Source of the DNA: Chloroflexota bacterium
Lineage (GTDB): Bacteria > Chloroflexota > UBA6077 > FW602-bin22
DNA length: 64,000 nucleotides
Assembly: GCA_016875715.1 (NCBI GenBank)
Contig: VGOZ01000001.1
Span: forward strand, 41,690-105,689
Reading direction: 5' to 3'
The position numbers and the translations under genes were made by a program. Positions 3,008 through 36,423 of the stretch are shown here, one piece after another. Position 1 is the stretch's first letter. Each line of letters starts with the position of its first letter. The notes under the pieces were generated by a model. That model did not search any database and was not told where the DNA came from. It saw nothing but the letters and a program-made list of their open reading frames with translations.

Positions 3008-3037
3008 ATCCTAGGTTGCTACCGGCGAGGCGGTCAA
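3008..3037 (-). promoter_or_regulatory. candidate sigma70-type promoter for the hydrolase gene
   Basis: The minus strand reads TTGACC (3037..3032), an 18-nt spacer, then TAGGAT (3013..3008), about 15 nt upstream of the ATG at 2992. It overlaps the 3' end of the epimerase gene. Confidence 0.3.
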
Positions 3038-4023
3038 TCGGCCGACCCCGGATTGCGCCGCCGGTAGAGAGCAAGCCTGTCCGGATCCGCCCGGAACCAC
3101 GCCGTGGTGAGCGCGAATCCCCGCTCGAACGAGGTCGCCGCACTCCATCCGAAATCGCGGCCAATGCGCCGGGCATCGCCCACCCAGGTGGTCGCATCCC
3201 ACGAGCGACCGGGCATGGTCGCCCACCGCGGTTCATCGGTAATGCCCAACTGGCCCCGCGCCACCTCGACTGCGTCGCGCAGGGTCGTGTGTCGACCGCT
3301 GGCGACGTTGTAGATCGCACCGGTCGGAGCGTCGCGCACCGCGCGCATGTAAGCATCGACCGCGTCCTCCACGTAGACGAAGTCGCGCGCGATGTCGGGG
3401 TTCACCAGGGGCGGCAGGCGACCCTCCAGCCCGCGAAGAATCAGGGCTGGGACCAGGCGATTCGGGTCCTCGTAGGGGCCGTAGATCGAATACAGGCGCA
3501 GCGTGACGATGCGCGTTGCCGTGCTCCGGGCCAGGGCCTGCGCGAGAAGGGTGGCGCCGCACTTCGTGGCCGCGTACACGCTCGTGGGTTCCAGCGGGTC
3601 GGCCTCGGAGGTCGGGCGATCCCGCCGTCCGTACTCGGAGGAACTTCCCGTGTTCACGAACGCCTCGACGCCGAGATCCGTGGCGGCACGCAGCAGATGG
3701 GCCGTCCCGACGACGTTTGTCCGAACGATGCGATCGAGATCTGTCTCCCACGAGTAGGCGCCGTGCGCGGCGAGATGGAAGATCCAGCGCGCTTGCGCGG
3801 CGCGCACCGCCAGTGCCACTGCCTTGCCATCGCCCAGATCGGCGACGTGGACCGCGCACCTCGACCAGACGTCGCCCAGGCGCCACGCGGTCTCCGGGGT
3901 GCGGAGGAGGAGGCTGACGGCGTGACCCTCGTCCAGAAGACGCCGCACGAGGTTGGCACCGACGAATCCCGCTCCACCCGAGACAAGGACGCGCTCCGAC
4001 ACTGAATCCCCCGATATGGCCAC
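3034..4023 (-). CDS. NAD-dependent nucleotide-sugar epimerase/dehydratase (SDR family)
   Basis: It has the Rossmann motif VLVSGGAGFVGANLVRRLL and the catalytic YAATKCGA (YxxxK). The in-frame GTG at 4002 (VSERVLVSGG) is a plausible alternative start. Confidence 0.85.
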   Translation of the reverse strand: MAISGDSVSERVLVSGGAGFVGANLVRRLLDEGHAVSLLLRTPETAWRLGDVWSRCAVHVADLGDGKAVALAVRAAQARWIFHLAAHGAYSWETDLDRIVRTNVVGTAHLLRAATDLGVEAFVNTGSSSEYGRRDRPTSEADPLEPTSVYAATKCGATLLAQALARSTATRIVTLRLYSIYGPYEDPNRLVPALILRGLEGRLPPLVNPDIARDFVYVEDAVDAYMRAVRDAPTGAIYNVASGRHTTLRDAVEVARGQLGITDEPRWATMPGRSWDATTWVGDARRIGRDFGWSAATSFERGFALTTAWFRADPDRLALYRRRNPGSAD

Positions 4024-4046
4024 CGGTCGCCCGATCGCCCCTCCCT

Positions 4047-4838
4047 ATGATTGTCGCGATGTCCGGCCGGCAGGTGCGTCGCATCGTGCTCGAGCAGTCC
4101 TTCCGCGCCCGGATCGGTCACATCGGCTCCGCGCTATCCATCGCCGATCTCCTCGCGGTCCTCTACGAGGACGTTCTCCGCGCGTCGGGGCCTCGCGATC
4201 CCGACCGCGATCGCTTCATCCTCTCCAAGGGTCACGCGGCGCTCGCCCTGTACGCGGTACTCCACCTCAGAGGATGGCTCAGTGCCGACGACCTGGCGAC
4301 CTTTGCGGGCGAGGACACCCTCCTGGGCGTCCACCCAGAACACGCGCTTCCCGGCGTGGACTTCTCGACCGGATCGCTGGGCCACGGCCTGTCGATCGGA
4401 GTCGGTGCCGCGCTCGGCGCGCGGATGCTCGGGGTTGCTCGCCGCGTCTTCGTGCTGCTCAGCGATGCCGAGTGCAACGAGGGATCGGTCTGGGAGGCGG
4501 CGATGTTCGCCGCGCACCACCGCCTGGGGGCACTCACCGCGATCGTCGACCTCAACGGGCAGCAGGCGCTCGACTACACGCGCGATGTTTTGGACCTGCA
4601 CCCGCTGGGCGATCGGTGGCGTGCCTTCGGCTGGAGTGTGCGCGAGATCGACGGTCACGATTCCCACCAGATTCACTCCGCTCTCACGGCTCAGGAGGCG
4701 CTGCCCACGGTGGTCATCGCCCGGACCGTGTTCGGACGAGGCGTGTCCTTCATGGAGTCACGCATCCCCTGGCACTATCTGCCGATGTCGGAGGAGCAGT
4801 ATCACCGGGCGCTGGCCGAACTCGCGGCACGGGAATGA
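4047..4838 (+). CDS. transketolase, N-terminal (ThDP pyrophosphate-binding) subunit
   Basis: 263 aa with GHIGSALSIADLL, SKGHAALALYAVL and GSLGHGLSIGVGAA, as in split transketolases. Confidence 0.85.
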   Translation: MIVAMSGRQVRRIVLEQSFRARIGHIGSALSIADLLAVLYEDVLRASGPRDPDRDRFILSKGHAALALYAVLHLRGWLSADDLATFAGEDTLLGVHPEHALPGVDFSTGSLGHGLSIGVGAALGARMLGVARRVFVLLSDAECNEGSVWEAAMFAAHHRLGALTAIVDLNGQQALDYTRDVLDLHPLGDRWRAFGWSVREIDGHDSHQIHSALTAQEALPTVVIARTVFGRGVSFMESRIPWHYLPMSEEQYHRALAELAARE

Positions 4839-5761
4839 GAGCGGCGTTCTTTCGCGCGCTCGCGGACCTGGCGGCCCGGGACGATCGTGTGGTGCTTCTG
4901 ACGGGTGACCTCGGCTTTATGGCGGCAGAGGGGTTTCGCGAGCGCTTTCCGGCGCGATTCTTCAACGTCGGTGTTGCCGAGCAGAACATGGTTGGTCTCG
5001 CCACCGGCCTGGCGGACGCGGGATTGATTCCGTTCTGCTACTCGATCGTCACCTTCGCGACGCTGCGACCGTACGAGTTCATACGGAACGGCCCCGTCCA
5101 CCACGGTCTGCCGGTGCGGATCGTCGGAATGGGCGGCGGTCTCGAGTATGGACTGGCGGGGCCGTCGCATCACGGTCTGGAGGACATCGCGATCATGCGG
5201 GCGCTCCCGGGAATGAGCGTGTTTGCGCCGGCGGATGCCGCCCAGGCGGAGACAGCCGTTGCGGCGACGGCAGCGGTTCCCGGTCCACTCTACCTGCGTC
5301 TGGGCAAAGACGACCGTACGATCGTTCCCGGGCTCGAGGGACGGTTCGCAATCGGGCGACTCCAGACGATCGCGCGCGGATCGGATGCGGCGATCCTGGC
5401 GATGGGCGGCATCGCGCCTGTTGCCGCCGACGTGGCGCGCGCACTGGGCCACCTGGGGGTGTCCGCGACCGTGGCCGTAGTTGCGTCGATCGTTCCGCCG
5501 CCACTCGACGACCTCGTCGCGGTTCTGCGCGATCATCCTCTGGTCGTGACCCTGGAGGCGCACGGACCGGTCGGCGGCCTCGGATCGTTGGTCGCGGAAG
5601 CCGCATCGACGATGGCGCGCCATGGTCGACTGGAGCGTTGCGCGGTTGGGCCGAGCGCGAACAGCACGACGGGCAGTCAGCGTTTCCTCGAGGCACGCGC
5701 GGGTCTCTCCATGGATCGCCTCGTCGCCCGCATCATCGCTGTGCAAGAGTCGGCCGCGTGA
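4835..5761 (+). CDS. transketolase, C-terminal (pyrimidine-binding) subunit
   Basis: The in-frame ATG at 4835 overlaps the upstream TGA (ATGA). The sequence MRAAFFRALADLAARDDRVVLLTGDLGF...FFNVGVAEQNMVGLATGLA is typical. The longer 3953 ORF start is rejected because its N-terminal part is an Arg/Pro-rich shadow of the upstream gene. Confidence 0.85.
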   Translation: MRAAFFRALADLAARDDRVVLLTGDLGFMAAEGFRERFPARFFNVGVAEQNMVGLATGLADAGLIPFCYSIVTFATLRPYEFIRNGPVHHGLPVRIVGMGGGLEYGLAGPSHHGLEDIAIMRALPGMSVFAPADAAQAETAVAATAAVPGPLYLRLGKDDRTIVPGLEGRFAIGRLQTIARGSDAAILAMGGIAPVAADVARALGHLGVSATVAVVASIVPPPLDDLVAVLRDHPLVVTLEAHGPVGGLGSLVAEAASTMARHGRLERCAVGPSANSTTGSQRFLEARAGLSMDRLVARIIAVQESAA

Positions 5762-6612
5762 CCGCTTCGCCGGTTCTCTCGATCGTCCTGCCCGTCTACA
5801 ACCAGGCAGACCACCTGGCGGCGATCGTCCAGGAGTACCGGCGGGAACTCGATCGTCTGCGGCGACCCTGCGAGTTGATTCTCGTGCCGAATGGGTGCCG
5901 CGATCGGTCAGTCGAGATCGCCCACAGATTGGCGGATGCACATGGCGACGTCCGCGTCGCCGAGGCTTCCCGACCGGGTTGGGGGCATGCCGTCCGTTGG
6001 GGCATCGCCGTGGCGCGGGGCGAGATCGTCGGGTATACGAATCTCGCGCGCACCTCCGCGGCCGATCTGACGCTGCTCGCGATCTACGCAACCGCCTACC
6101 CGGAGGTGGTCGTGAAGGCAAACCGTAAGATCCGCGAGGGGATGTCGCGACGACTCGGGGCCTTGCTCTACAACCTCGAGTGCCGGGCGCTCTTTGACCT
6201 TTCCTGCTGGGACATCAACGGTACGCCGAAGTTCTTTCCACGCCGTTTCGACCGCCTTCTGGCACTGCGACGCGACGACGACCTGCTCGATCTGGAGTTC
6301 GCCGTCACTTGCCGTACGGCTGGATATCCCCTCATCGAAGTGCCGATCTTCTCGACCCGTCGCCACGGGGGGCGTTCGACGACGCGACTCACCTCGGCCA
6401 TACGGCTCTATCTCGGTGCACTCGCGATGCGCTGTGGGCCCATCACCACGGGGACTGGCGCCATCCCGCACAGATCACGGGCGCGTGGTGGGACGGTGGG
6501 CGCGTCGATCGAACGCTGCTCGCAGCGCGGGCGCGCGGACCGTGGTGGGACCTGCTTGCGGGTCTCGGCGTTTCGCTGGTCGTGTCGCGGGAGTACGAAC
6601 ACCTCCTTCTGA
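5758..6612 (+). CDS. family 2 glycosyltransferase (polyprenyl-phosphate sugar synthase-like, Ppm1/ArnC/GtrB type)
   Basis: The GTG at 5758 overlaps the upstream TGA (GTGA). The GT-A N-terminus is LSIVLPVYNQADHLAAIVQEY...LILVPNGCRDRS. The convincing sequence ends near RLYLGALAMR (about 6440). The last roughly 55 codons look non-coding, so the C-terminus is uncertain. Confidence 0.75.
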   Translation: MTASPVLSIVLPVYNQADHLAAIVQEYRRELDRLRRPCELILVPNGCRDRSVEIAHRLADAHGDVRVAEASRPGWGHAVRWGIAVARGEIVGYTNLARTSAADLTLLAIYATAYPEVVVKANRKIREGMSRRLGALLYNLECRALFDLSCWDINGTPKFFPRRFDRLLALRRDDDLLDLEFAVTCRTAGYPLIEVPIFSTRRHGGRSTTRLTSAIRLYLGALAMRCGPITTGTGAIPHRSRARGGTVGASIERCSQRGRADRGGTCLRVSAFRWSCRGSTNTSF

Positions 6613-7562
6613 CCCTGGGGGGCGCCGCGTCCGTCGGACAGACCTATTTCCCACTCCCTCACCCGTCCGGGATCGCGCTCGCTCCGGACCGTCGATCTCT
6701 CTTCGTCGCCAGCACGCGCAACCCGAACCAGATCCTCCAGTTCGCGCCGCAGCCGAAGGCCGAAGCGCTGCCGACGGCGCTCGCGCCATCGCGCACCTGG
6801 TTCTATCCGGGCCATCTATACCTGCACGACCTCGCCTTCGTGGCCGGAGTCCTCCACGGCAACGCGGTCGGCCAGAACGCGGTCGTGCGATTCGATGCGG
6901 AGGGGAGCTACGAGCGGTGCTGGTGGCCCCTCAGTATCGAGTCGCTGGGCGAGGATTCGCGCTTCGCGCGCAACCACCTGCAACTGAATTCCATCGCCGC
7001 CGGGCCAGACCTCGTGCGCTCGTGCTTTTCGGCGTCCGCGGCCGTCCCCGGTACCCGCCGCCCCGGCCACCGGAACTTCGCAGTGGATGGCTGCGGCGTG
7101 GTATTCGACGGCGCCACGCGCGTCCCGCTGGTGCGCGGCCTCACGCGTCCCCACTCGGCTCGATTCCATCGTGGTGCCCTCTGGGTCGACAACAGCGGCT
7201 ATGGCGAACTGGTGCGCGTGGGAGACGGTTCGTCCGAAGTGATCGCGCGACTTCCGGGTTGGACGCGCGGCCTCGCTTTCGTCGAGGGCATAGCCTTCGT
7301 GGGGACCTCGCGGGTCCTGCCGCGATTCCGACAGTACGCTCCGGGCCTCGATCTCGCGCGAAGCCGGTGCGGACTGCATGCGGTCGAGATCGCGACTGGG
7401 AGGATCCTGGCCAGCATCGAATGGCCAGGGGGGAATCAGATCTTCGCGATCGAGATTGCTCCGGCAGACTGGCGGTTCCCGTTTCAGGGCGCGCGCGCCG
7501 TTATCACTGAGGCGCAGCGACGCTTTTTCTACACTCTCGCGGCCCTGGAGAGGCGAGTGTGA
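6309..7562 (+). CDS. TIGR03032-like conserved protein of unknown function
   Basis: Motifs GVSLVVSREYEHLLLTLGG, RPHSARFHRGALWVDNSGYGEL and LPGWTRGLAFVEGIAFVGTSRV match my recollection of the TIGR03032 family. Convincing coding starts only at about 6440-6470. There is no in-frame ATG/GTG/TTG between 6309 and 6582, so the start is unresolved. Confidence 0.55.
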   Translation: MPYGWISPHRSADLLDPSPRGAFDDATHLGHTALSRCTRDALWAHHHGDWRHPAQITGAWWDGGRVDRTLLAARARGPWWDLLAGLGVSLVVSREYEHLLLTLGGAASVGQTYFPLPHPSGIALAPDRRSLFVASTRNPNQILQFAPQPKAEALPTALAPSRTWFYPGHLYLHDLAFVAGVLHGNAVGQNAVVRFDAEGSYERCWWPLSIESLGEDSRFARNHLQLNSIAAGPDLVRSCFSASAAVPGTRRPGHRNFAVDGCGVVFDGATRVPLVRGLTRPHSARFHRGALWVDNSGYGELVRVGDGSSEVIARLPGWTRGLAFVEGIAFVGTSRVLPRFRQYAPGLDLARSRCGLHAVEIATGRILASIEWPGGNQIFAIEIAPADWRFPFQGARAVITEAQRRFFYTLAALERRV

Positions 7563-8482
7563 CGGAAGATTTTCGACTGTTGATGATCGGTGCGATGTAT
7601 GAGAACGGGGGGAATACGACCCACCGATTCCTCGATGGTCATCCCGATCTGGCAGTTTACCCATTTGAGTCACAACTGGGTACGCGACATGTCGGTGATC
7701 TTCTGGCTTCGATGTTTCCGCTCAAGTATCGATGGCCGGAGTTTCTCCTGGGCGCGAGCGCCCACGACGACTATCGCGCCATCATCGACGAGGAGTGCAA
7801 GGTCCGGGCACGCACACCTCAGGTGAGCAGGTTCCGCGATCGACCCTTCGTCTTCTCGGACGACGATCGACGGGATCGGTTTGTCGATCTCGTCGCCGGA
7901 GCGCCGCGCTCGCGGGGGAGAAATGTCGCGGCCTTCTTCCAGGCCACTTTCGACGTCTGGCGCGATCACCATGCCGAGACCGATCGCCCGATCTACGTGG
8001 GGTACAGTCCGATTGTCACGGTCGACTACGAGAAGATCCTTGGCGACCTGCCGGAAGCGCGCATTCTCCACGTGGTGCGCAATCCCTGGTCGGCGTACGC
8101 AGACACCTGTCGTCGGCCGGTTCCGCTCAGCCTTGCCGACTATATGCTCGGATGGACTACCTGCCAGCACGCCGCGCTGGTCGCGGCGGCCCGCCACCCG
8201 GCGCGCGTCCACGTGCTTCGGTTTGAGGATCTCGTGGCCGATCCGGCCGGTACCCTCACGAAGGTGCTCGCCACAGTGGGCGTGGCGGGTGCGCCGGCAC
8301 TTGCCTACCCGACCTGGAACGGGCACCGCCTCAACGAGGTGTACCCGTGGGGCACGATCCGCCATGCCACGGTGGAGGCGAATCGGTCGACCGCATTCGA
8401 GCTCTCTTCCGCGGTGCGGTCCGATGTGACGGCTCGAGCTGGATTGTTTCTGGACGCGCTGGATTACCGTTCATTCCTGTGA
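7559..8482 (+). CDS. sulfotransferase family protein
   Basis: The GTG at 7559 overlaps the upstream stop. It has a PAPS 5'-PSB-like N-terminus (LLMIGAMYENGGNTTHRFLDGHP), a 3'-PB-like ILHVVRNPWSAYAD, and the family-typical LRFEDLVADPAGTLTKVLATVGV. Confidence 0.7.
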   Translation: MTEDFRLLMIGAMYENGGNTTHRFLDGHPDLAVYPFESQLGTRHVGDLLASMFPLKYRWPEFLLGASAHDDYRAIIDEECKVRARTPQVSRFRDRPFVFSDDDRRDRFVDLVAGAPRSRGRNVAAFFQATFDVWRDHHAETDRPIYVGYSPIVTVDYEKILGDLPEARILHVVRNPWSAYADTCRRPVPLSLADYMLGWTTCQHAALVAAARHPARVHVLRFEDLVADPAGTLTKVLATVGVAGAPALAYPTWNGHRLNEVYPWGTIRHATVEANRSTAFELSSAVRSDVTARAGLFLDALDYRSFL

Positions 8483-9459
8483 TCGCTCGGGTCGTCGCCC
8501 CCCTCCTCGCCATCATTCTGCTGGTGCTCGTGGTGCGCCAGATCGACATCGACGAAGCCGTCGAGGTCATCACCAGGGCCGATTTGCGACTCCTCGCCGT
8601 AACCTGGCTGATCGTGGTTCTTAGCCAGGGCATGCGTGCGCTGCGCTGGCGCGTCATTCTCGAGGCGAGCGGGAGCACACCCGTCACGCCGGTCTTCTGG
8701 GCGAACCTTGCCGGCTACTGCGGAAACTACGTTCTGCCCGCACGCGCCGGGGAGGCGATCCGATCGGCGCTCGCGAGCCGTGCGCTGGCGCGCCCTCTGG
8801 GGTTCGTGCTCGCCACCGCGATGACGGAACGGATCATCGACGTTCCGGTACTCGTCCTCTCCGCCGCAGCGGCCGGTCTCCTCCTCGAAGCGATGCCGGC
8901 GGAAGTCGGCGGCGCGCTCGGCGCTATGGCGATCGCCGCGGTCGCGGGGGTGCTCGGCCTCACGATCGCGCCGCGCCTGCTCACCCTGGGGCGCCGCATC
9001 CTGGCTCGCGCGCCCCTCATCGCGCAGCACGCGATGCGCATCGATCCTCACCTGGAGCGGCTGAGCGAGGGCTTCACCGCACTGCACGATGGGCGCCGCC
9101 TGCTCGCGTTCGCCGGGTTCACCGCCGTTGTCTGGTCGATCGATATCCTTCTCGGGCAGGTCCTCGCCTGGGCGATGGGTTTCACCCTGAGCATTCCGCT
9201 CACCATCCTGCTCATCGCCAGTCTCGGTCTCTCGAGTGCGCTGCCCTCGACACCGGGCTACGTGGGCATCTATCAGTTCGTGGCCCTGATCGTCCTCGTG
9301 CCGTTCGGCCTCTCGGCGAGTCAGGCGGTCGCCTATGTGGTCCTGCTGCAGTTGCTCGCCTACGCGGTCGTGGTGCCCTTTGGGGTTGTGGGGATGTGGC
9401 GCCTTGGCGGAGGGTTCGTGACCGGGCGCAACCTCAGGGAGATCACAGCCAAGGACTGA
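8479..9459 (+). CDS. flippase-like / lysylphosphatidylglycerol-synthase-TM-type (UPF0104) integral membrane protein
   Basis: The GTG at 8479 overlaps the upstream TGA (GTGA). VIARVVAPLLAIILLVLVVRQIDIDEAVEVITRADLRLLAVTWLIVVLSQGMRALRWRVIL is the family-typical start. The protein is polytopic throughout. Confidence 0.65.
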   Translation: MIARVVAPLLAIILLVLVVRQIDIDEAVEVITRADLRLLAVTWLIVVLSQGMRALRWRVILEASGSTPVTPVFWANLAGYCGNYVLPARAGEAIRSALASRALARPLGFVLATAMTERIIDVPVLVLSAAAAGLLLEAMPAEVGGALGAMAIAAVAGVLGLTIAPRLLTLGRRILARAPLIAQHAMRIDPHLERLSEGFTALHDGRRLLAFAGFTAVVWSIDILLGQVLAWAMGFTLSIPLTILLIASLGLSSALPSTPGYVGIYQFVALIVLVPFGLSASQAVAYVVLLQLLAYAVVVPFGVVGMWRLGGGFVTGRNLREITAKD

Positions 9460-12233
9460 GCGGCACGAGTGATTCGAGGGCGAGGAGTTCCTGATCCTTG
9501 CCAGGCGGCCGCCACAGCAGGTTCAACTGTCCTCCCACGCGATGAAACCGTTCGACGACGACCGCATGCTCGCCTTCGGAGAGCCTGGTCAACGCGAGGA
9601 TCTCTTCCCGCCGTAGATCACGCGGCCGAGTCCAATCCGCGTACGCCGGCCAGACTTGCCGTCCGTCGATCAGAATGCGGGCGGGCTGGTCGCTCTGGAG
9701 TTCGAACTCGTGCAGGCCGCCGCGATTGATCCTTACGGTACCAAGCATGCGAATGAGGACGGGGCGCTCCGCGGGCGGCGGCACTCCCTCGCCGACGGAG
9801 TGGCCACCAAACATCGCGTCGAACTCCCTTGCCAGCAGTTGCTGACCATCGCCGCCGCGGTACTCGATGGTCACCCGAGGGGGACCGGGCCAGACGTTGG
9901 CTCGGCCATGCGGGAACGGATGGGAGCCGATTGCCGCGCTCCCGATAGACCACACGGTGGGGGCGGATGCCGCGGATGTGACGCGGGCTTCGGCGCGTAG
10001 CGGTACGGCTCGCGACGGCGCCGAGATATCCAGTGGCGACTGACCGGCGTCGAGCTTGTGGGCACCATCGCCAAGCCACAGGTCGACGGGGGCCGTGCTG
10101 ATGAGGACCAGTCGATCTGTCTCGGGTCGCCGATCCTCCGGCACGTACCACCCCTGCCACTGCAGGCGGGTGGGGAACTCCAGGTCCGACGGCCAGACCG
10201 CCGGCGGCTCGATCGCGGCCGCGCGCATCCCCCAGCGTCGTCCGTCCGCTCCATCCAGAGTGAGCTCCAGACCTCGGTGACGCGCCACATCCTCATCCGC
10301 CACCGAGAATACCGTCCACAGCAACGGGTTCTTGAACGTCGGGTCGTTCGTCACGAGTTCTGTCACCTGGATTTGCGGGAACGCCGCACGTGCCACCGGG
10401 AGCCACGCGCGCATGGAAGCGTTGAACGCAAAGGTGGTTCGGTGTGCGCTCGGCGTCAGTTCGATCATCTCCTGGGCCGGGCGATACATCGTGCGGGTCG
10501 GGTTCTTGCGCTCCATCTTCGAGCCGAGCGCCAGCGCCAGTCGGGCGCCCTAGGGACCAAGCATCACGATCAGGCGTTCTCCCTCCGGCAGAGCGGCGAC
10601 GTAGCGGGCGATAGCGCCCTGATAGGCATCCGGATCGCGGCGCGCATAGTCCACGTAGTAGAAACTCGCCTCCGCAACCGCGCTGGCGACGAGTCCGCCC
10701 GCCAGCGCGAACCCGTCGATGGCGGAGAGCCACCGGTTTCGCTGGTTCCAAATCTCCACAAAGCGGTCGAATCCGACACCAATCAGCACGGTCCCCGCTA
10801 ACACTCCGGGTTGTATGCGATGGGCCGGAGGTGGGTGATCGGAAAGAAGGGAGAGCGCCACGGTTGGCGCCCAGAACCGCAGTGCCGCCAGGCGATAACG
10901 CCAGTCAAGGAATCGGAGACTGACCAGCAAGAGCGCGCCGTAGAGGAGTGCGGCGGGAATCGTGGTGAAGAGACCGCGCTCCGGCAGGTCGTGGTGATCC
11001 GGCGCTCGGAATGACGTTGTACGCGAGGAAGGCGCGGTATGCGTGCTCCCAGAGAGGACGGAGCGCGTCGATCTCTCCCGAGCGCTGAAACAACCCGACT
11101 GCCGCGCCCAGCCACGAGTTGAGCCGTGCGTTGTAGGCGAACACCGCGGGCTCCCGCACCAGGGTGACGAGCAGGGGACCAAGGCCGATCGCCAGACCGA
11201 CCGCGAATTTGCAACTGCCAAACGCGAGCCAGCGGCCCCGGAGCCGGGAATCGAACGCTGCGAGCACTAGTACGAACGCGGCGAACGCGAAGGCCGGTCT
11301 GCCGGCTAGATACAGGTACATACCGAGGCTGAGAGCGACGCCGCCCAGCGCCAGCCAACGGGGTTCGCGGCCTCTGAAGCCTCGCGCGAAGCAGTAGGCG
11401 GTCAACAGCCAGACGAAAGACCCCTCGATGGTGATTTCTCCATGCCGGGAGAATGCAAGGTGCATCGCCAGTGTCGAGAGCACCAGCGCGGCGACGATTG
11501 CGGCACGGAATCCAAACAGCGCCCGCGCCACGAAGAAGACCATCGCGACCTGAACCATCCCGACGAGTGCGCTGGGCAGCCGGTGAACCGTCAGGCTCAG
11601 GCCAAGTGTCTCGAAGGCGATTCGGCGGGGATAGGCGCTCAGGAGGAGCATGCTGCCGATGTCCCCTGGGCGCATATCGAACAGGGCGAATCCGTTCTCC
11701 GGGTCAACCGTCGCGCGGCGCAGGGCGAGTTCGGGAGTTACGTACTCATCGATGTGCGATGCCTGGTGCGACTCCAGACCGTAGAGGCGGAGAGCCGCGG
11801 CCAGGATCAGCACTCCGCCGAGGAGCGCCCACTGGCTCCGGGAGAGGCGCGGTAGCGCCGGTCTGGACAGCCATGCTCCAACCCATAACGCAACCGAACC
11901 CAGCCAGATCGGGGCGAGAGCCCACGCGCGGATGTCTCTCACGGCGATCGCCAGTCCCACGGCGAAGAGGGTGACCGAGGCGAGGAGGGGGGCACGACGT
12001 GGCTCGGCCCTGGTCGATCCTGCCGTCCGCGCCAGAGACTCCTGATCCGCATCCCGCCGCGCCCGCATCGCCAGGGCAAAGGCCACGCAGGCCAGAAGCC
12101 AGCCGACGGCGAGCAGGACGCCCGGGCGGTTGCCCCCTTCCCATCCAGTCTCGAAGAGCCACTCGGCACCCAGGAGCGCGATGGTGATGGGCGCCGCGAC
12201 CATCGCTGCGACGCGAGAGAAACCCCGCGTCAC
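9443..12233 (-). pseudogene. disrupted tandem paralog of the 12230..15109 GT39-like/PA14-like membrane protein (one frameshift plus one in-frame TAG)
   Basis: Three ORF pieces (10905..12233, 10550..11221, 9443..10516) align in order with the 959-aa upstream protein.
- LRPLWEHAYRAFLAYNVIPS matches LQPILRHVEGALLGFNVLGS.
- APDHHDLPERGLF matches VDNHYLPDRGLLL.
- ASAVAEASFYYVDYARRD matches ASAVLDIAFYFFDYARRD.
- NVWPGPPRVTIEY matches SAWPGPPRVRVEW.
The frame changes near 11010. Pieces 2 and 3 are in the same frame, separated by the TAG at 10550-10552. Confidence 0.65.
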
Positions 12234-15109
12234 GGCCAGACAATCGGTCGGAGCGCGTGTGCCGGTACGAGACGGAATGGTTCAGTGCCTCGCCGCCACT
12301 GCAGGTGGATCTTTCCCCCGCTATCGAGCAAGCGCTCCACGCGGAGATCGTGATCCTCCGCGGTGAGAGTCACCCGTGCCCGTCTGGACTCCAAAGGCCC
12401 TCCTGGCGTCTCGAGGCGCTCCGCTCCCCGGGGCCAGATCTGGCGGCCGCCGATCGCCAGGCGGGTAGGTCCATCCGACACAATCTCGAACTCGTAGGGG
12501 CCGGCCACTGCTATGTGAAGCGTTGCCCGCCAGGCGACCCGGTACATGCCGGGGGCGGGACGACGGAGATTGAAGCGATGGTCGGCGATGTGGACGTCGA
12601 ACTCGTCGAGAACGACGGCTCTGGACGCGTCCTCAGCCCACTCAACCCGTACCCTTGGCGGACCCGGCCACGCGCTGATTGGCACGCTCCCGGGATCGTC
12701 GCCATCGCCGGAACCTCCTCGCTCGATCGAGATGGCGGTATCTGCTCCCGGGTGAGGAAGTACTGTTCGGGCCCAGAGCGGCTGCGGCCCTCGGGCCGAC
12801 CTCAGGACCGTCGATCCGGATCCAGGGTCGACCGTCGATCGCTGGGCACCAAGAGCGATCTCTAGCGGAGCGGGGCCGCGATACCGGAGGACGATTCTCT
12901 CCGCGCTATCCGTTGCGAGACGTGCCCAGCCACGCCACTCTACGCCTACGGGAAAGGTCAGTTCGGTGGGGATTTCCGCTCCCCGAACCACGGAGGCACC
13001 TGCTGCCACGACGTGGATCGCTCCATTCGCACCGTGCAGTCTGACCGACGGCCCCTCTATCCGAACGGCGTTGTCTGGTAGGATCACTGTCCAGCCAACC
13101 GCGTCGGGGTTGAACCGAGAGCGGAGCACCCCAATGCGTGATCCCGGGTAGGCCGCAGCAACCTCGTCCACCCAGGCCGCTCCCGCCTCGGGCAGCATGA
13201 TGGAGACGTCGCCGCGCCGTTCGAGCAGCGGAATCTGCTCTGCGAGCCGGCCGAGCGGCATACCCTGCACGCGCTCCTCGAGATCACTCGCCCACTGAAA
13301 CGGCTTTCCTTGGACGTCCAGTTCCATTCCATAGGCAGAGATCCCCGGAAATACCGCGAGGGTCGACCCGGCCGATCGTTCGAGAACGTAGCGTACGAGC
13401 GTGTCCTGGGCTGTATCGAAGTCGCGGCGCGCGTAGTCGAAGAAGTAGAAAGCGATATCCAGCACCGCCGATGCGACCAGTCCGGCGAACACGACCGCTG
13501 TGGTGCCGCGCGCGAACAGGATGCCGACTCGCTCAAACGCGCCGATGAGCCGATCGGCGCCGATACCCACGAGGACTGCCGCGGCGGGAAGAACGGGCAG
13601 CCCGCGATGAGTGATCGGTGTCGCGTCGGAGAGCATCATCAGGCTCGTGGCGCTTCCCCAGAACCAGAGACTCACGATGCCGAGGCGCCAGGCCAATACG
13701 TGGCGCAGCGCGAACGCAGCACCGGCAGCCAGGAACGCTGCCGGCACGAGGAGCAGGAGACCTCGGTCCGGAAGGTAGTGGTTATCGACGCTTCCAAGGA
13801 CGTTGAACCCGAGCAGAGCGCCCTCGACGTGTCGCAGTATCGGCTGGAGCGCGCCGATCTCCCCGGTCGCGCGATAGGCCTGGATCGCCGCCCCGAGCCA
13901 GCTGGTCTTCTCGGAGCGAAACAGGTAGAGCGAGGGGTCTCGGAGGTATGGCGCCAGCATGGGGCCCGCGCCGACCAGAAACCCGGCGACTAGCATTCCC
14001 GCGGCGCGGACTATCCACAGGCCCCGCGTCTCGGGGAGCACCACCAGCAGCACGATAGTCGCGGCCACGAAGGTGACTGCGGGCCGATACGCCCAGTAGA
14101 CGAAAAGGGTCAGACTGAGCACGGCCCCGGCTCCCAGGAAGTACCGCGGGTCCCGTCGCTCGGTACCCCGCACCAGGAGGTACGTCAGAATGCACCATGC
14201 GAGTGAAGCCTCAATGAGCCTCTGCCCGTTTCGCGAGAACTCCAGGTGCGCGGCGAGACCGGCGAGTGTCAGCGCGGCGATTCCTGCTACGCGCGCGTTC
14301 GCGATCGCTCGCCCTGTGAAGAAGACTGCCACGATCTCCGCAGTCCCGATCAGTGCGCTGGGCACGCGCAGCCAGGCCAGGTCGATCCCGCCCACAGCGA
14401 ACGCGATCGTGCTCAAGTACGTCGTCAAGGCCAGCTGAGAGAACAGACCTCTATCGGCCGCGAAGAGCGAGATACCTCTGGCCGTCAGGTATTGACCGGA
14501 CGTGATCTCGCGGCCCAGTTCCAGCGCGAACGGCATCATCGCCAATTCGTCGATGATGACCGGACGGGTGCCCAGGTCGATCAGGCGTAGGACCGCCGCG
14601 AGGAGTGCGAGCGCCGCTGCCGACAAGAGGATTGTCCCGGGCTGCGGTGCGGGCCGGAGTCGAACCGCGACAATCAGGCAGGCGAGCCCGCCCACCCAGG
14701 GAACGACCAGGTACGAAGCGCGCGGAGCCTGCCAGGCGAGAATCACCCCGACAGAGGCCAGGCCGATGGCCAGGGCCAGGAAGAGAGCCTGAACGGAGGT
14801 TGCCGGGGCCGCGGCAGGCGCCGGATGGCGCAGCCCCGGACAGGCGACCGCGAAGAGGACCAGCGCCCCAGCGTACAGGGCGGTCTCAGCGTACCCGACA
14901 TCTGGATAGGAGCCGCGAAAGATCGTTTCTGCGCAAAGTGGGGCTAGCGCCGCGCTCGCGCCGATCAGCGCGAGCGGACCTCTCCCTGTGAGTGGCCACC
15001 TCAACACCAGAGCTCCCGATCGGCCGTGGGGTTTACTGTCGCGCGGATCGTCGATCTCAGCCCAGGCTGGTGAGTGAATGAAACCGCAGGGTGCTGCCGC
15101 CCCACACAT
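12230..15109 (-). CDS. GT39/ArnT/PMT-like polytopic glycosyltransferase with C-terminal PA14-like beta-sandwich
   Basis: It is polytopic, with an acidic first-loop motif (RPVIIDELAMMPF). The C-terminal domain is MYRVAWRATLHIAVAGPYEFEIVSDGPTRLAIGGRQIWP...HDLRVERLLDSGGKIHLQWRR. The start is probably the GTG at 15007 or TTG at 15004, downstream of the upstream gene's stop. The stop overlaps the next gene's start (GTGA at 12230-12233). Confidence 0.6.
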   Translation of the reverse strand: MCGAAAPCGFIHSPAWAEIDDPRDSKPHGRSGALVLRWPLTGRGPLALIGASAALAPLCAETIFRGSYPDVGYAETALYAGALVLFAVACPGLRHPAPAAAPATSVQALFLALAIGLASVGVILAWQAPRASYLVVPWVGGLACLIVAVRLRPAPQPGTILLSAAALALLAAVLRLIDLGTRPVIIDELAMMPFALELGREITSGQYLTARGISLFAADRGLFSQLALTTYLSTIAFAVGGIDLAWLRVPSALIGTAEIVAVFFTGRAIANARVAGIAALTLAGLAAHLEFSRNGQRLIEASLAWCILTYLLVRGTERRDPRYFLGAGAVLSLTLFVYWAYRPAVTFVAATIVLLVVLPETRGLWIVRAAGMLVAGFLVGAGPMLAPYLRDPSLYLFRSEKTSWLGAAIQAYRATGEIGALQPILRHVEGALLGFNVLGSVDNHYLPDRGLLLLVPAAFLAAGAAFALRHVLAWRLGIVSLWFWGSATSLMMLSDATPITHRGLPVLPAAAVLVGIGADRLIGAFERVGILFARGTTAVVFAGLVASAVLDIAFYFFDYARRDFDTAQDTLVRYVLERSAGSTLAVFPGISAYGMELDVQGKPFQWASDLEERVQGMPLGRLAEQIPLLERRGDVSIMLPEAGAAWVDEVAAAYPGSRIGVLRSRFNPDAVGWTVILPDNAVRIEGPSVRLHGANGAIHVVAAGASVVRGAEIPTELTFPVGVEWRGWARLATDSAERIVLRYRGPAPLEIALGAQRSTVDPGSGSTVLRSARGPQPLWARTVLPHPGADTAISIERGGSGDGDDPGSVPISAWPGPPRVRVEWAEDASRAVVLDEFDVHIADHRFNLRRPAPGMYRVAWRATLHIAVAGPYEFEIVSDGPTRLAIGGRQIWPRGAERLETPGGPLESRRARVTLTAEDHDLRVERLLDSGGKIHLQWRRGTEPFRLVPAHALRPIVWP

Positions 15110-35074: not shown

Positions 35075-35395
35075 GTGGCAGTCGACGGTCTGCGGTTCGA
35101 GCGACAGTATCGTACGTCCCATTCCGAGGGCTACCTGATTCTCGATGGCGAGGATCGGTTCGGTCGGATCGAACTGCACTTCACGGCCAGCGTCGTCTAC
35201 GGCACGTTGATTGCCGAGCGTGACCTGGCAGAAGACGAGATCCTCGACGTGATCGAACAGATCGACGACGAACTCGTGATGACGGCGGATGTCCCACGGG
35301 ATGACTTCATCGTCACGGTCTATCAAGGGCGCGACGCTGGTACGTACAGCGATGACTACTTCGATGACAGCGAGGAAGACGAGAGCGGGTCGTGA
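35075..35395 (+). CDS. small hypothetical protein with strongly acidic C-terminus
   Basis: 106 aa with protein-like composition. The stop overlaps the polyprenyl synthase start (GTGA at 35392-35395). I recognise no family. Confidence 0.45.
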   Translation: MAVDGLRFERQYRTSHSEGYLILDGEDRFGRIELHFTASVVYGTLIAERDLAEDEILDVIEQIDDELVMTADVPRDDFIVTVYQGRDAGTYSDDYFDDSEEDESGS

Positions 35396-36423
35396 CCCTT
35401 TCCGATCCCCTGAGCGCCGCGGCGACGCGGTTTGGTCCGGCGCTCGATCGTGAACTCCGCGAGGCGGTGCCGGACGAGTCGAGGGGAGCCATTTACCGTC
35501 TCGTTCGGTACCATCTCGGATGGGCGACGCAGAATGGCGTTGTGGCGCGCGCCGAGCCGGGAAAGCGCCTGCGCCCCTACCTTCTCCTTCTCGCGTGTGA
35601 GTCAGCGGGCGGCCGCGCGGACGGCGGCTTGCCCGCCGCGGCGGCGGTTGAACTGCTGCACAACTTCTCCCTGATCCACGACGACATCCAGGATCGCTCG
35701 CCCCAGCGGCGCCATCGCGCCACCGTCTGGAGCATCTGGGGCGAGGCTCAGGCGATCAACGCGGGCGACGTTCTTCACGCGATCGCGTCACGATCGTTCC
35801 TTCGCTGTGCGGAGCGCGGCGTATCACTCGGTGCTACCCATCGGGCGCTGGCCCTCTTCCACGAGAGTTGCTACCGCCTCGTGGAGGGGCAGTATCTCGA
35901 TCTGACGTTCGAGTCGCGCGTCGACGTGAGCCCGGCGGAGTATCTCGCGATGGTGGACGGCAAGACAGGCGCGCTCATCGCCGCCTGCGTGGAGATCGGC
36001 GCCGTCCTAGCCGGGCGGGATGGCGCGGCCTGGCGTGCCGTCGGCAGGGCGTTCGGTCGCGCCTTTCAGATCGTCGACGACGTCCTCGGGGTTTGGGGCG
36101 ACCCTGCGGTCCTCGGCAAGTCCGTCGACGACGACATTCGTTCCGCGAAGAAGTCGCTGCCAGTTCTTCTTGCTCGAGAGTCGCTCTCGGCGACCGATCG
36201 CACTTGCCTCGACACGCTCTACGGTGCAGATCGTCGGTCCGATGACGATGTGGAGACGATTCGGAGGATGCTCGACCAGTCCGGCGCGCGAGAACGGGCG
36301 TTGGACCACGCACGCGCTGCGGCGATGGAAGGAGAGGCGGCGCTCGCGGTGATACAGGAGCGTGGGGCGGCGGTCGCGCCGCTGACATCCTTGCTGCGCG
36401 TCCTTGTGGAACGACACCGTTAG
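35392..36423 (+). CDS. trans-polyprenyl diphosphate synthase (GGPP/long-chain type)
   Basis: It has the first Asp-rich motif LIHDDIQDRSPQRRHR and the second, FQIVDDVLGVWGD. Confidence 0.85.
   Translation: MTLSDPLSAAATRFGPALDRELREAVPDESRGAIYRLVRYHLGWATQNGVVARAEPGKRLRPYLLLLACESAGGRADGGLPAAAAVELLHNFSLIHDDIQDRSPQRRHRATVWSIWGEAQAINAGDVLHAIASRSFLRCAERGVSLGATHRALALFHESCYRLVEGQYLDLTFESRVDVSPAEYLAMVDGKTGALIAACVEIGAVLAGRDGAAWRAVGRAFGRAFQIVDDVLGVWGDPAVLGKSVDDDIRSAKKSLPVLLARESLSATDRTCLDTLYGADRRSDDDVETIRRMLDQSGARERALDHARAAAMEGEAALAVIQERGAAVAPLTSLLRVLVERHR

Follow-up and report, generated by a model that had tools for sequence, protein, structure and literature searches.

A widespread six-gene cassette with a split transketolase-like enzyme may make a lipid-linked sugar for envelope glycosylation in a Chloroflexota bacterium

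Envelope glycosylation systems such as ArnA/ArnC/ArnE-F/ArnT, GtrB/GtrA/GtrC and PgfS/PgfE/PgfM combine a short-chain dehydrogenase/reductase (SDR) acting on a nucleotide sugar, an ArnC-like family 2 glycosyltransferase (GT2), a flippase (GtrA or ArnE/F) and PMT_2/ArnT-like transferases of the GT-C type. Three further lines of work concern enzymes that could modify or move such sugars. For the miharamycin and amipurimycin clusters, a 2025 review records the proposal that split-gene transketolases (TKs) act downstream of an oxidoreductase and attach a hydroxyacetyl branch to a keto sugar (PMC12247030); in Haloferax volcanii, the hexose bound to dolichol phosphate (DolP) is sulfated in an Agl7-dependent manner (PMC3892788); and UPF0104/PplT proteins, which are predicted lipid flippases, with flipping shown only for MprF and predicted for GpgF, are encoded alongside operons for glycolipid head-group synthesis (PMC12713373). 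Here we analyse a 64,000-nucleotide stretch of DNA (hereafter the window; contig VGOZ01000001.1, positions 41,690 to 105,689 of the forward strand) from the 94%-complete metagenome-assembled genome (MAG) of a Chloroflexota bacterium, and in it an operon encoding the N- and C-terminal subunits of a TK-like enzyme (TK-N and TK-C), a GT2, a DUF4915/TIGR03032 beta-propeller, a sulfotransferase-fold (ST-like) protein and a flippase-like membrane protein, with a divergent SDR gene upstream. An earlier note on this DNA had read the operon as the source of a lipid-linked sugar donor for neighbouring GT-C enzymes.

The locus shares with the Arn, Gtr and Pgf systems its SDR, its ArnC-like GT2, a candidate flippase and PMT_2/ArnT-like GT-C transferases encoded nearby. 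It differs from them in that the GT2 carries neither a DXD motif nor transmembrane (TM) helices, and in that the candidate flippase is an MprF-type UPF0104 protein missing from most related loci. Nothing in those systems corresponds to the TK-like pair, the DUF4915 propeller or the sulfotransferase fold and, unlike Arn, the locus encodes no aminotransferase, formyltransferase or deformylase. It may represent a three-component type of polyprenyl-phosphate glycosylation with new tailoring enzymes.

A species-level scan with one genome per species returned 344 pattern matches, of which 300 were confirmed as relatives, and the best 80 of these 300 were inspected in detail using TBLASTN with the window proteins. 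Across these 80 loci, drawn from about 12 phyla, the gene order TK-N, TK-C, GT2, DUF4915, ST-like, SDR recurs at approximately 50-65% identity. The carriers are Chloroflexota, Cyanobacteriota including Melainabacteria, Acidobacteriota, Actinomycetota (Solirubrobacterales), Planctomycetota, Binatota, Dormibacterota, Armatimonadota, Gemmatimonadota, Desulfobacterota and others. All 80 loci hold the trio GT2-DUF4915-ST, whilst TK-N, TK-C and SDR travel together as one unit in three of them (L029, L047 and L054) and are not nearby in about eight Melainabacteria loci. The gene coupling exceeds chance, and the 4-nt overlaps between TK-N and TK-C and between GT2 and DUF4915 are found again in the gene calls of distant loci. 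With so fixed an order, and with such identity over about a dozen phyla, the product must be under strong selection. Four loci (L017, L031, L050 and L089) show the circularly permuted order ST-SDR-TK-N-TK-C-GT2-DUF4915, an arrangement that one would expect from a tandem duplicate cut back at differing sites.

Two features set the window apart from this pattern. In most other phyla the SDR gene lies downstream of the ST-like gene on the same strand, whereas here it is inverted and divergent; and the flippase-like gene, which only about 8 of the 80 loci carry next to the cassette, is a lineage-specific seventh gene outside the conserved cassette. The window version is the core cassette with its SDR gene inverted and a flippase-like gene appended. 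Among the genomes of 61 relatives from the same class, full-length DUF4915 is present in about six, and this patchy presence suggests that the cassette is an accessory module that moves horizontally.

Within the window, direct reading of positions 3960-9540 bore out the four 4-nt start/stop overlaps reported in the earlier note (ATGA at 4835-4838; GTGA at 5758-5761, 7559-7562 and 8479-8482). Its six domain assignments held when products were assigned with Pfam and NCBIfam models, as did its placing of a divergent SDR gene on the minus strand upstream (Table 1). A scan for promoters and terminators inside the operon gave no site above shuffle expectation. The annotated starts of the SDR and TK-N genes are only 23 nt apart (4024-4046), or 44 nt apart with the start called in a near-identical assembly, L006; a 23-nt gap implies either that both promoters lie within coding sequence or that the transcripts are leaderless.

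From the gene content, order and conservation of the cassette, together with its motif states and neighbourhoods, we infer the following chemical steps and their order. The SDR would oxidise a nucleotide sugar to a keto sugar, to which the split TK-like enzyme, dependent on thiamine diphosphate (ThDP), would add a two-carbon (C2) unit, hydroxyacetyl or glycolaldehyde. The ArnC/DPM1-like GT2 would then transfer the sugar to polyprenyl phosphate on the cytoplasmic side of the membrane, and the DUF4915 propeller and the ST-like protein might tailor it further, with sulfation only where 3'-phosphoadenosine 5'-phosphosulfate (PAPS) exists. In this lineage, the MprF-type flippase-like protein could move the lipid-linked product outward, and the adjacent PMT_2/PA14 GT-C enzymes could transfer it to acceptors in the envelope. 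That the operon is the local version of a widespread cassette which makes a lipid-linked, C2-modified sugar for envelope GT-C enzymes seems to us an evenly balanced proposition. Of the donor proposed in the earlier note, the C2-modified, lipid-linked form is plausible, whilst its sulfation is doubtful and its link to the TIGR03662/TIGR03663 array fails, as detailed below.

Both subunits of the TK-like pair pass their Pfam cut-offs, and their best solved relative is the split TK of Carboxydothermus hydrogenoformans (N subunit, 6yak, E 4.9e-63; C subunit, 6yaj, E 5.2e-51), with which they have in common a two-gene architecture, ligands for ThDP/Mg, an activating Glu and His residues on the donor side. 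Across alignments of 32-33 sequences, the equivalents of E. coli TK His26, His66, His100, His261 and His473 and of the activating Glu411 are conserved, together with the TK motifs AEQN (with its Glu), GHIG, KGH, HPE, WHY and PSHH. In the N subunit, the cofactor motif SDAE...D.NGQQ replaces GDG...N (SDAE for the GDGE of the C. hydrogenoformans enzyme) and retains the Asp and Asn Mg ligands. As far as sequence can tell, the ThDP/Mg motif and donor-side His residues of a transketolase are thus in place. Other positions have changed throughout the clade: GDLGFMA stands for ADLSKST, GxGGG for ATHAG, GxAG for GEDG and RLGKDD for RLGRSG. The equivalents of Ser385, His461, Asp469 and Arg520, which we take to form the sugar-phosphate pocket and to recognise the D-threo configuration (E. 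coli TktA numbering), are replaced in every cassette-clade sequence, in contrast to the C. hydrogenoformans enzyme and to the full-length TK of the same genome, which retains them. The whole cassette clade therefore lacks the sugar-phosphate pocket of a transketolase. Retention of the cofactor and donor-side residues with loss of the phosphate-site residues points to a ketol-transferring enzyme whose second substrate, besides the ketol donor, would be something other than a sugar phosphate.

The earlier note had recognised that its reading would suffer if these subunits were the organism's only, housekeeping transketolase. They are not: a full-length TK is encoded elsewhere in the genome (contig C22, an open reading frame of 709 aa scoring 467 bits), as is another split TK on contig C89. 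The latter (2156-2941, L002) itself deviates from the usual motifs, with AGYAG for ATHAG and GKTG for GEDG, and may be another specialised enzyme of the TK family.

The nearest precedent for such chemistry is that of the miharamycin and amipurimycin TKs, which are likewise two-subunit, ThDP-dependent enzymes of the TK family whose genes accompany that of an oxidoreductase in a cluster for sugar modification. The corresponding features of the cassette are the TK-N, TK-C and SDR unit and the lost sugar-phosphate site. The antibiotic enzymes differ in that they belong to Streptomyces biosynthetic clusters and have a proposed role, whereas the setting of the cassette is a putative envelope glycan locus, found in about a dozen phyla. 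YerE, a ThDP enzyme that branches CDP-4-keto sugars of O-antigens, is a further parallel; it belongs to the decarboxylase superfamily and not to that of the TKs (PMC12247030).

The GT2 resembles the enzymes that make polyprenyl-phosphate sugars, as the earlier note had suggested. Its family profile aligns with ArnC (9hwj) over positions 2-208 of 221 (E 1.1e-12), a stretch that takes in the juxtamembrane-helix region and the R-x-x-G-x-S motif near the C terminus. This is the only end-to-end match in the Protein Data Bank (PDB), GtrB and DPMS aligning partially. The NCBIfam models matched were ArnC in all 33 family members, PgfS in 27, AglJ in 20 and the DolP-hexose transferase in 12. The ancestry of the protein is thus that of the polyprenyl-phosphate GT2s, but without their metal site. 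In five Solirubrobacterales loci (L055, L059, L064, L065 and L073), a second GT2, approximately 40% identical to that of the cassette, is encoded immediately beyond the SDR gene on the other strand. The SDR itself keeps the motifs GxxGxxG, SSEYG and YxxxK across its family, and its best PDB matches are TunA (3vps) and proteins of the GalE and RmlB types. Attempts to sub-type it failed, as TunA, GalE, RmlB and MoeE5 score alike and SSEYG fits none of them cleanly.

Membrane-embedded glycosyltransferases are enriched directly beside the cassette. In 34 loci, a polytopic open reading frame of at least 400 aa lies within 1.5 kb; 17 of the 37 polytopic neighbours match a GT-C family in Pfam (12 PMT_2, 3 YfhO and 2 PMT), and only 1 of the 37 is a recognisable transporter. 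L010 has a TMEM260_N protein. Computed without correction for kinship, a GT-C-type polytopic protein occurs on 34% of flanks within 1.5 kb and on 10-19% further out. Two Chloroflexota relatives, L011 (89% identity) and L037 (53-68%), keep the cassette collinear with the flippase-like gene and with the proximal PMT_2/PA14 genes, and the second proximal GT-C is also syntenic in both (82% and 44% identity, respectively). GT2, flippase-like and GT-C genes are all linked in the window and in these two loci; elsewhere the GT-C neighbours are heterogeneous and the flippase-like gene is usually absent. We considered a single conserved cognate GT-C and rejected it, since BLAST sorted the neighbours into many unrelated clusters. 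Their heterogeneity fits a conserved donor-making module that serves lineage-specific transferases, yet it weakens the statistics.

Membership of the flippase-like family, as claimed in the earlier note, was confirmed for the seventh gene product, which has several hydrophobic segments and exceeds its cut-offs (PF03706, 135.5 bits against 33.4; TIGR00374, 65.7 against 43.2); a flippase role for the cassette at large fares less well, given how few loci carry the gene. GpgF and HexF, also UPF0104 proteins, provide a parallel in that their genes come last in operons for making modified membrane lipids. The substrate proposed here is a polyprenyl-phosphate sugar and not a phospholipid, and here the gene stands outside the conserved cassette.

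Several observations weigh against the proposed pathway, and they begin with the GT2. It scores about 25 bits (best E 1.9e-11) where the curated cut-offs for ArnC, PgfS and AglJ are 500-529; the DXD motif is absent, an invariant Y-T-N-[SL]-A-R-T standing where ArnC has D-A-D and 3bcv has D-S-D; and a scan for hydrophobic segments found no TM helix. Glycosyl transfer to polyprenyl phosphate by this protein is therefore not assured. For the DUF4915 protein, whose AlphaFold2 (AF2) model is a beta-propeller (mean predicted local distance difference test score, pLDDT, 86) and whose family keeps about 90 invariant columns across phyla, Foldseek returned only generic propellers (YVTN, YWTD/LRP, NHL and lactonase-like) at TM-scores of about 0.5. 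Around 90% of loci have no linked flippase, and the polytopic neighbours do not form one family, with an adjacency figure that ignores phylogeny.

The ST-like protein and the sulfate supply add to these difficulties. The fold is that of a sulfotransferase: the AF2 model has a pLDDT of 88, its top 50 Foldseek matches in the PDB are all sulfotransferases, including CurM ST, OLS ST and TPST1/2, with TM-scores of up to 0.60, and the Sulfotransfer_3 score is 50.7 bits against a cut-off of 27. The canonical 5'-phosphosulfate loop reads P-K/R-S-G-T-T and supplies the catalytic Lys/Arg. In the cassette protein the strand, loop and helix read LLMIG-AMYENGGNTT-HRF, the loop being without Lys or Arg, and A-M-Y-E-N-G-G-N is invariant in the 31 sequences aligned. 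An equally invariant R-N-P-W-S-A...D-T aligns with the RHPY segment of CurM ST and OLS ST, in the region where a 3'-phosphate-binding motif of the R-x7-S type would lie.

Searches of the window's own genome found no adenosine 5'-phosphosulfate (APS) kinase and no ATP sulfurylase, with no match to PF01583 or PF01747, and no CysC/D/H/G or sulfite reductase (SiR) homologue. A genome of the same genus (G001/G036) carries an 8-kb cysC-cysN-cysD-cysG-cysH-sir cluster (L100, 9570-17565) whose flanks are contiguous on contig C8 of our genome (27427-27489). The absence of this cluster and of other sulfate-activation genes from a 94%-complete MAG implies dependence on reduced sulfur. APS kinase was likewise not found in the cassette carriers G037 and G081, each 96% complete; within the class it occurs in 2 of 6 cassette genomes as against 27 of 61 genomes overall, whilst across phyla 24 of 35 cassette genomes give a strong match. 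With neither the loop Lys/Arg nor a PAPS pathway, PAPS-dependent sulfation as the universal role of the cassette is doubtful, roughly a one-in-three prospect. Sulfation by a PAPS-type sulfotransferase, as put forward in the earlier note, thus has the right fold and lacks the catalytic residue and the donor genes. The same note had called a sulfated polyprenyl-linked sugar unusual chemistry, for which there is in fact a precedent: in the Agl7 system of Haloferax, sulfate is added to a polyprenyl-phosphate-linked sugar before flipping (PMC3892788). That system differs in being archaeal, whereas the ST-fold protein of the cassette has no catalytic Lys/Arg and its genome no PAPS synthesis.

A bolder version of the pathway would take these departures as functional. 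The cassette would then be a new route to a C2-branched or chain-extended polyprenyl-phosphate sugar, with three enzymes working by non-textbook mechanisms: a TK-family enzyme acting on a nucleotide- or lipid-linked keto sugar, a DXD-less and probably metal-independent GT2, and an ST-fold enzyme that, with the DUF4915 propeller, would carry out a PAPS-independent reaction. We regard this version as unlikely at present; if true, it would give DUF4915 its first function.

A separate question is whether the copy in the window still works. The junction between its GT2 and DUF4915 genes, which the earlier note had left ambiguous, reflects a 48-bp deletion in this assembly and not ambiguous biology. 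We compared it with L006 and L007, the Logan assemblies of SRR7053297 and SRR7052762, to which the window is 99.9% identical over 17.5 kb on both sides of the junction (BLASTN). Both BLASTN pieces share window positions 6423-6432, and alignment revealed that the window lacks 48 bp which L006 and L007 carry between two copies of CGCGATGCGC. With these 48 bp, the stop codon of GT2 and the GTG start and first codons of DUF4915 are lost. The native GT2, intact in L006 and L007, is 232 aa long and stops 38 nt inside the deleted segment; in the window its frame instead continues out of frame to 6612 and gains a tail of 61 residues. In both relatives the 232-aa GT2 gene and the 385-aa DUF4915 gene overlap by GTGA, and all five operon junctions are 4-nt overlaps. 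Their DUF4915 product, otherwise 100% identical, starts MSVADSRDALW, which the window cannot encode. DUF4915 retains one canonical in-frame start, TTG 6309, which lies within the GT2 gene and has GGAG 12 nt upstream. A GT2-DUF4915 fusion and a programmed frameshift were both rejected, since a homologue search with the DUF4915 frame returned stand-alone proteins of 385-410 aa and the relatives have a plain GTGA junction. Given its position between 10-bp repeats, the deletion seems to us more probably biological than a k-mer artefact.

Further signs of decay are present in this genome. The proximal GT-C gene has a frameshift near 11000, where frames -3 and -1 join (TBLASTN), and an in-frame stop; it is split likewise in the gene calls of L006 and L007, which are independent assemblies, whilst L011 and L037 encode it whole (945 and 953 aa, respectively). 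Together with the junction deletion, seen in this assembly only, and the missing sulfate-activation genes, this indicates a system that appears to be decaying and partly broken in this genome, damage on which the earlier note was silent.

Of the rival explanations, the one that survives best concerns the window only, and is compatible with the proposed pathway for the cassette generally: the cassette here would be an inactive remnant. We think this a serious contender, if somewhat short of an even chance. The deletion between direct repeats removes the start of DUF4915 in the genome's only copy of that gene and leaves GT2 with its out-of-frame tail, the GT-C gene that travels with the cassette is a pseudogene, its break being seen in L006 and L007 as well, and the clean absence of the same-genus sulfate assimilation cluster would leave any PAPS-dependent step without a donor. 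On the other hand, the other genes, five or six in number, are undamaged and share 99.9% identity with those of L006 and L007, which keep the junction; the deletion may reflect misassembly or a minority variant; initiation at TTG 6309 could yield a longer DUF4915 product; and an intact second PMT_2 gene comes next.

An alternative end product for the cassette, which we hold to be improbable, is a modified membrane glycolipid of the GpgSDF/HexSDF kind, moved by the UPF0104 flippase, or a soluble glycosylated metabolite, with no GT-C donor involved. The cassette enzymes are indeed all soluble, the GT2 included; UPF0104 flippase-like genes go with glycolipid head-group operons (PMC12713373); the nearest sulfotransferase structures, CurM and OLS ST, are natural-product enzymes; ketone-acceptor split TKs have so far been proposed only in antibiotic clusters; and no polytopic protein adjoins the cassette in about half of the loci. 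Against this stand the full-length similarity of the GT2 to ArnC, with matches to the AglJ, PgfS and DolP-hexose transferase models, and the enrichment of PMT_2, YfhO, PMT and TMEM260_N families right beside the cassette. The neighbours in Melainabacteria (a Wzm/Wzt-type ATP-binding cassette transporter, a GT4 and a GT2), a synteny that holds at the level of that lineage only, also indicate a glycan locus; no other flanking families recur across the loci, and we found no recurrent polyketide synthase, nonribosomal peptide synthetase or resistance genes beside the cassette.

The reading given literally in the earlier note, a sulfated (PAPS-derived) or branched polyprenyl-linked sugar made specifically for a TIGR03662/TIGR03663 array, is very unlikely. 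The window does contain a minus-strand array of GT-C type (9443-34683; PMT_2, TIGR03663/Agl23 and DUF2298/TIGR03662) next to the cassette, and the two lie approximately 20 kb apart on one contig in G036 (same genus) and G037 (same family); the sulfotransferase fold and the archaeal DolP-hexose sulfation also speak for it. However, DUF2298/YYY pairs are present in 58 of the 61 class relatives and the cassette in about 6, so that the pairs are near-universal irrespective of the cassette and the specific link fails; in G078 and G081 the cassette and the DUF2298 pair are on different contigs. Outside Chloroflexota, the cassette has no TIGR03662/TIGR03663 neighbour except for a weak YYY match in L080. 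Distribution thus largely refutes this version, to which the missing PAPS pathway and the scarcity of APS kinase among cassette carriers of the class are further obstacles. As for an ordinary central-metabolism transketolase that sits in the operon incidentally, the strong similarity to the biochemically active split TK 6yak/6yaj hardly makes it credible when the genome holds a full-length and another split TK, the phosphate-binding and Asp469 equivalents are lost clade-wide and the TK genes are fixed in the cassette across phyla.

Table 1 Features of the cassette and its surroundings in the window.
Feature	Position	Strand	Support
Extended SDR, NDP-sugar epimerase/dehydratase type	3034..4023	-	Pfam Epimerase 2.3e-46, GDP_Man_Dehyd 3.9e-42
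Transketolase-like N-terminal (ThDP/Mg-binding) subunit	4047..4838	+	Transketolase_N 2.3e-38
Transketolase-like C-terminal (pyrimidine-binding) subunit	4835..5761	+	Transket_pyr 9.3e-35 + Transketolase_C
GT2-like protein, ArnC/DPM1-like	5758..6612	+	Glycos_transf_2 7.1e-10
Remaining single copy of 10-bp repeat CGCGATGCGC	6423..6432	+	Alignment with L006, L007
DUF4915/TIGR03032 beta-propeller gene	6423..7562 (TTG 6309 a possible start)	+	DUF4915 4.1e-47
Sulfotransferase-fold protein	7559..8482	+	Sulfotransfer_3 3.8e-13, residues 124-242 only
Flippase-like membrane protein (MprF flippase domain, UPF0104/PplT)	8479..9459	+	LPG_synthase_TM 3.5e-39, TIGR00374
Proximal GT-C (PMT_2 + PA14-like), convergent on operon	9443..12233	-	PMT_2 3.8e-12, PA14
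Second proximal GT-C, 959 aa, intact	12230..15109	-	PMT_2 5.5e-08
trans-Polyprenyl diphosphate synthase, head of GT-C array	35392..36423		PF00348 4.6e-62

Literature searches found no paper mentioning DUF4915 or TIGR03032 and nothing relevant on clusters combining a split transketolase, a sulfotransferase and a glycosyltransferase; a search on Agl23/TIGR03663/DUF2298 returned mostly papers on plant AGL23. The DUF4915 protein scores 161.4 bits against the Pfam cut-off of 35 (PF16261) and 103.6 bits against the NCBIfam TIGR03032 equivalog cut-off of 251.5; having passed the first and missed the second, it is by its model scores a DUF4915 member of a distinct subfamily, for which, as for TIGR03032, the cassette gives a testable context. 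The TK-like pair represents a natural set of TK-family enzymes with a remodelled acceptor site and may interest those who use biocatalysis to form C-C bonds, ketone-accepting TKs still being proposals. The cassette also offers examples of a GT2 without DXD and of a sulfotransferase fold without the partner of its catalytic base, and automatic labels such as "transketolase" and "sulfotransferase" in loci of this kind are probably wrong in detail.

Further along the window, the polyprenyl diphosphate synthase at the head of the GT-C array follows a cyclophilin-like gene and could supply a dedicated lipid carrier. The genome as a whole encodes eight LPG_synthase_TM (UPF0104) paralogues, two of them in tandem on contig C1 (32734-34670), approximately 7 kb upstream of the window start. 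This expansion is unusual and parallels that of the GT-C genes.

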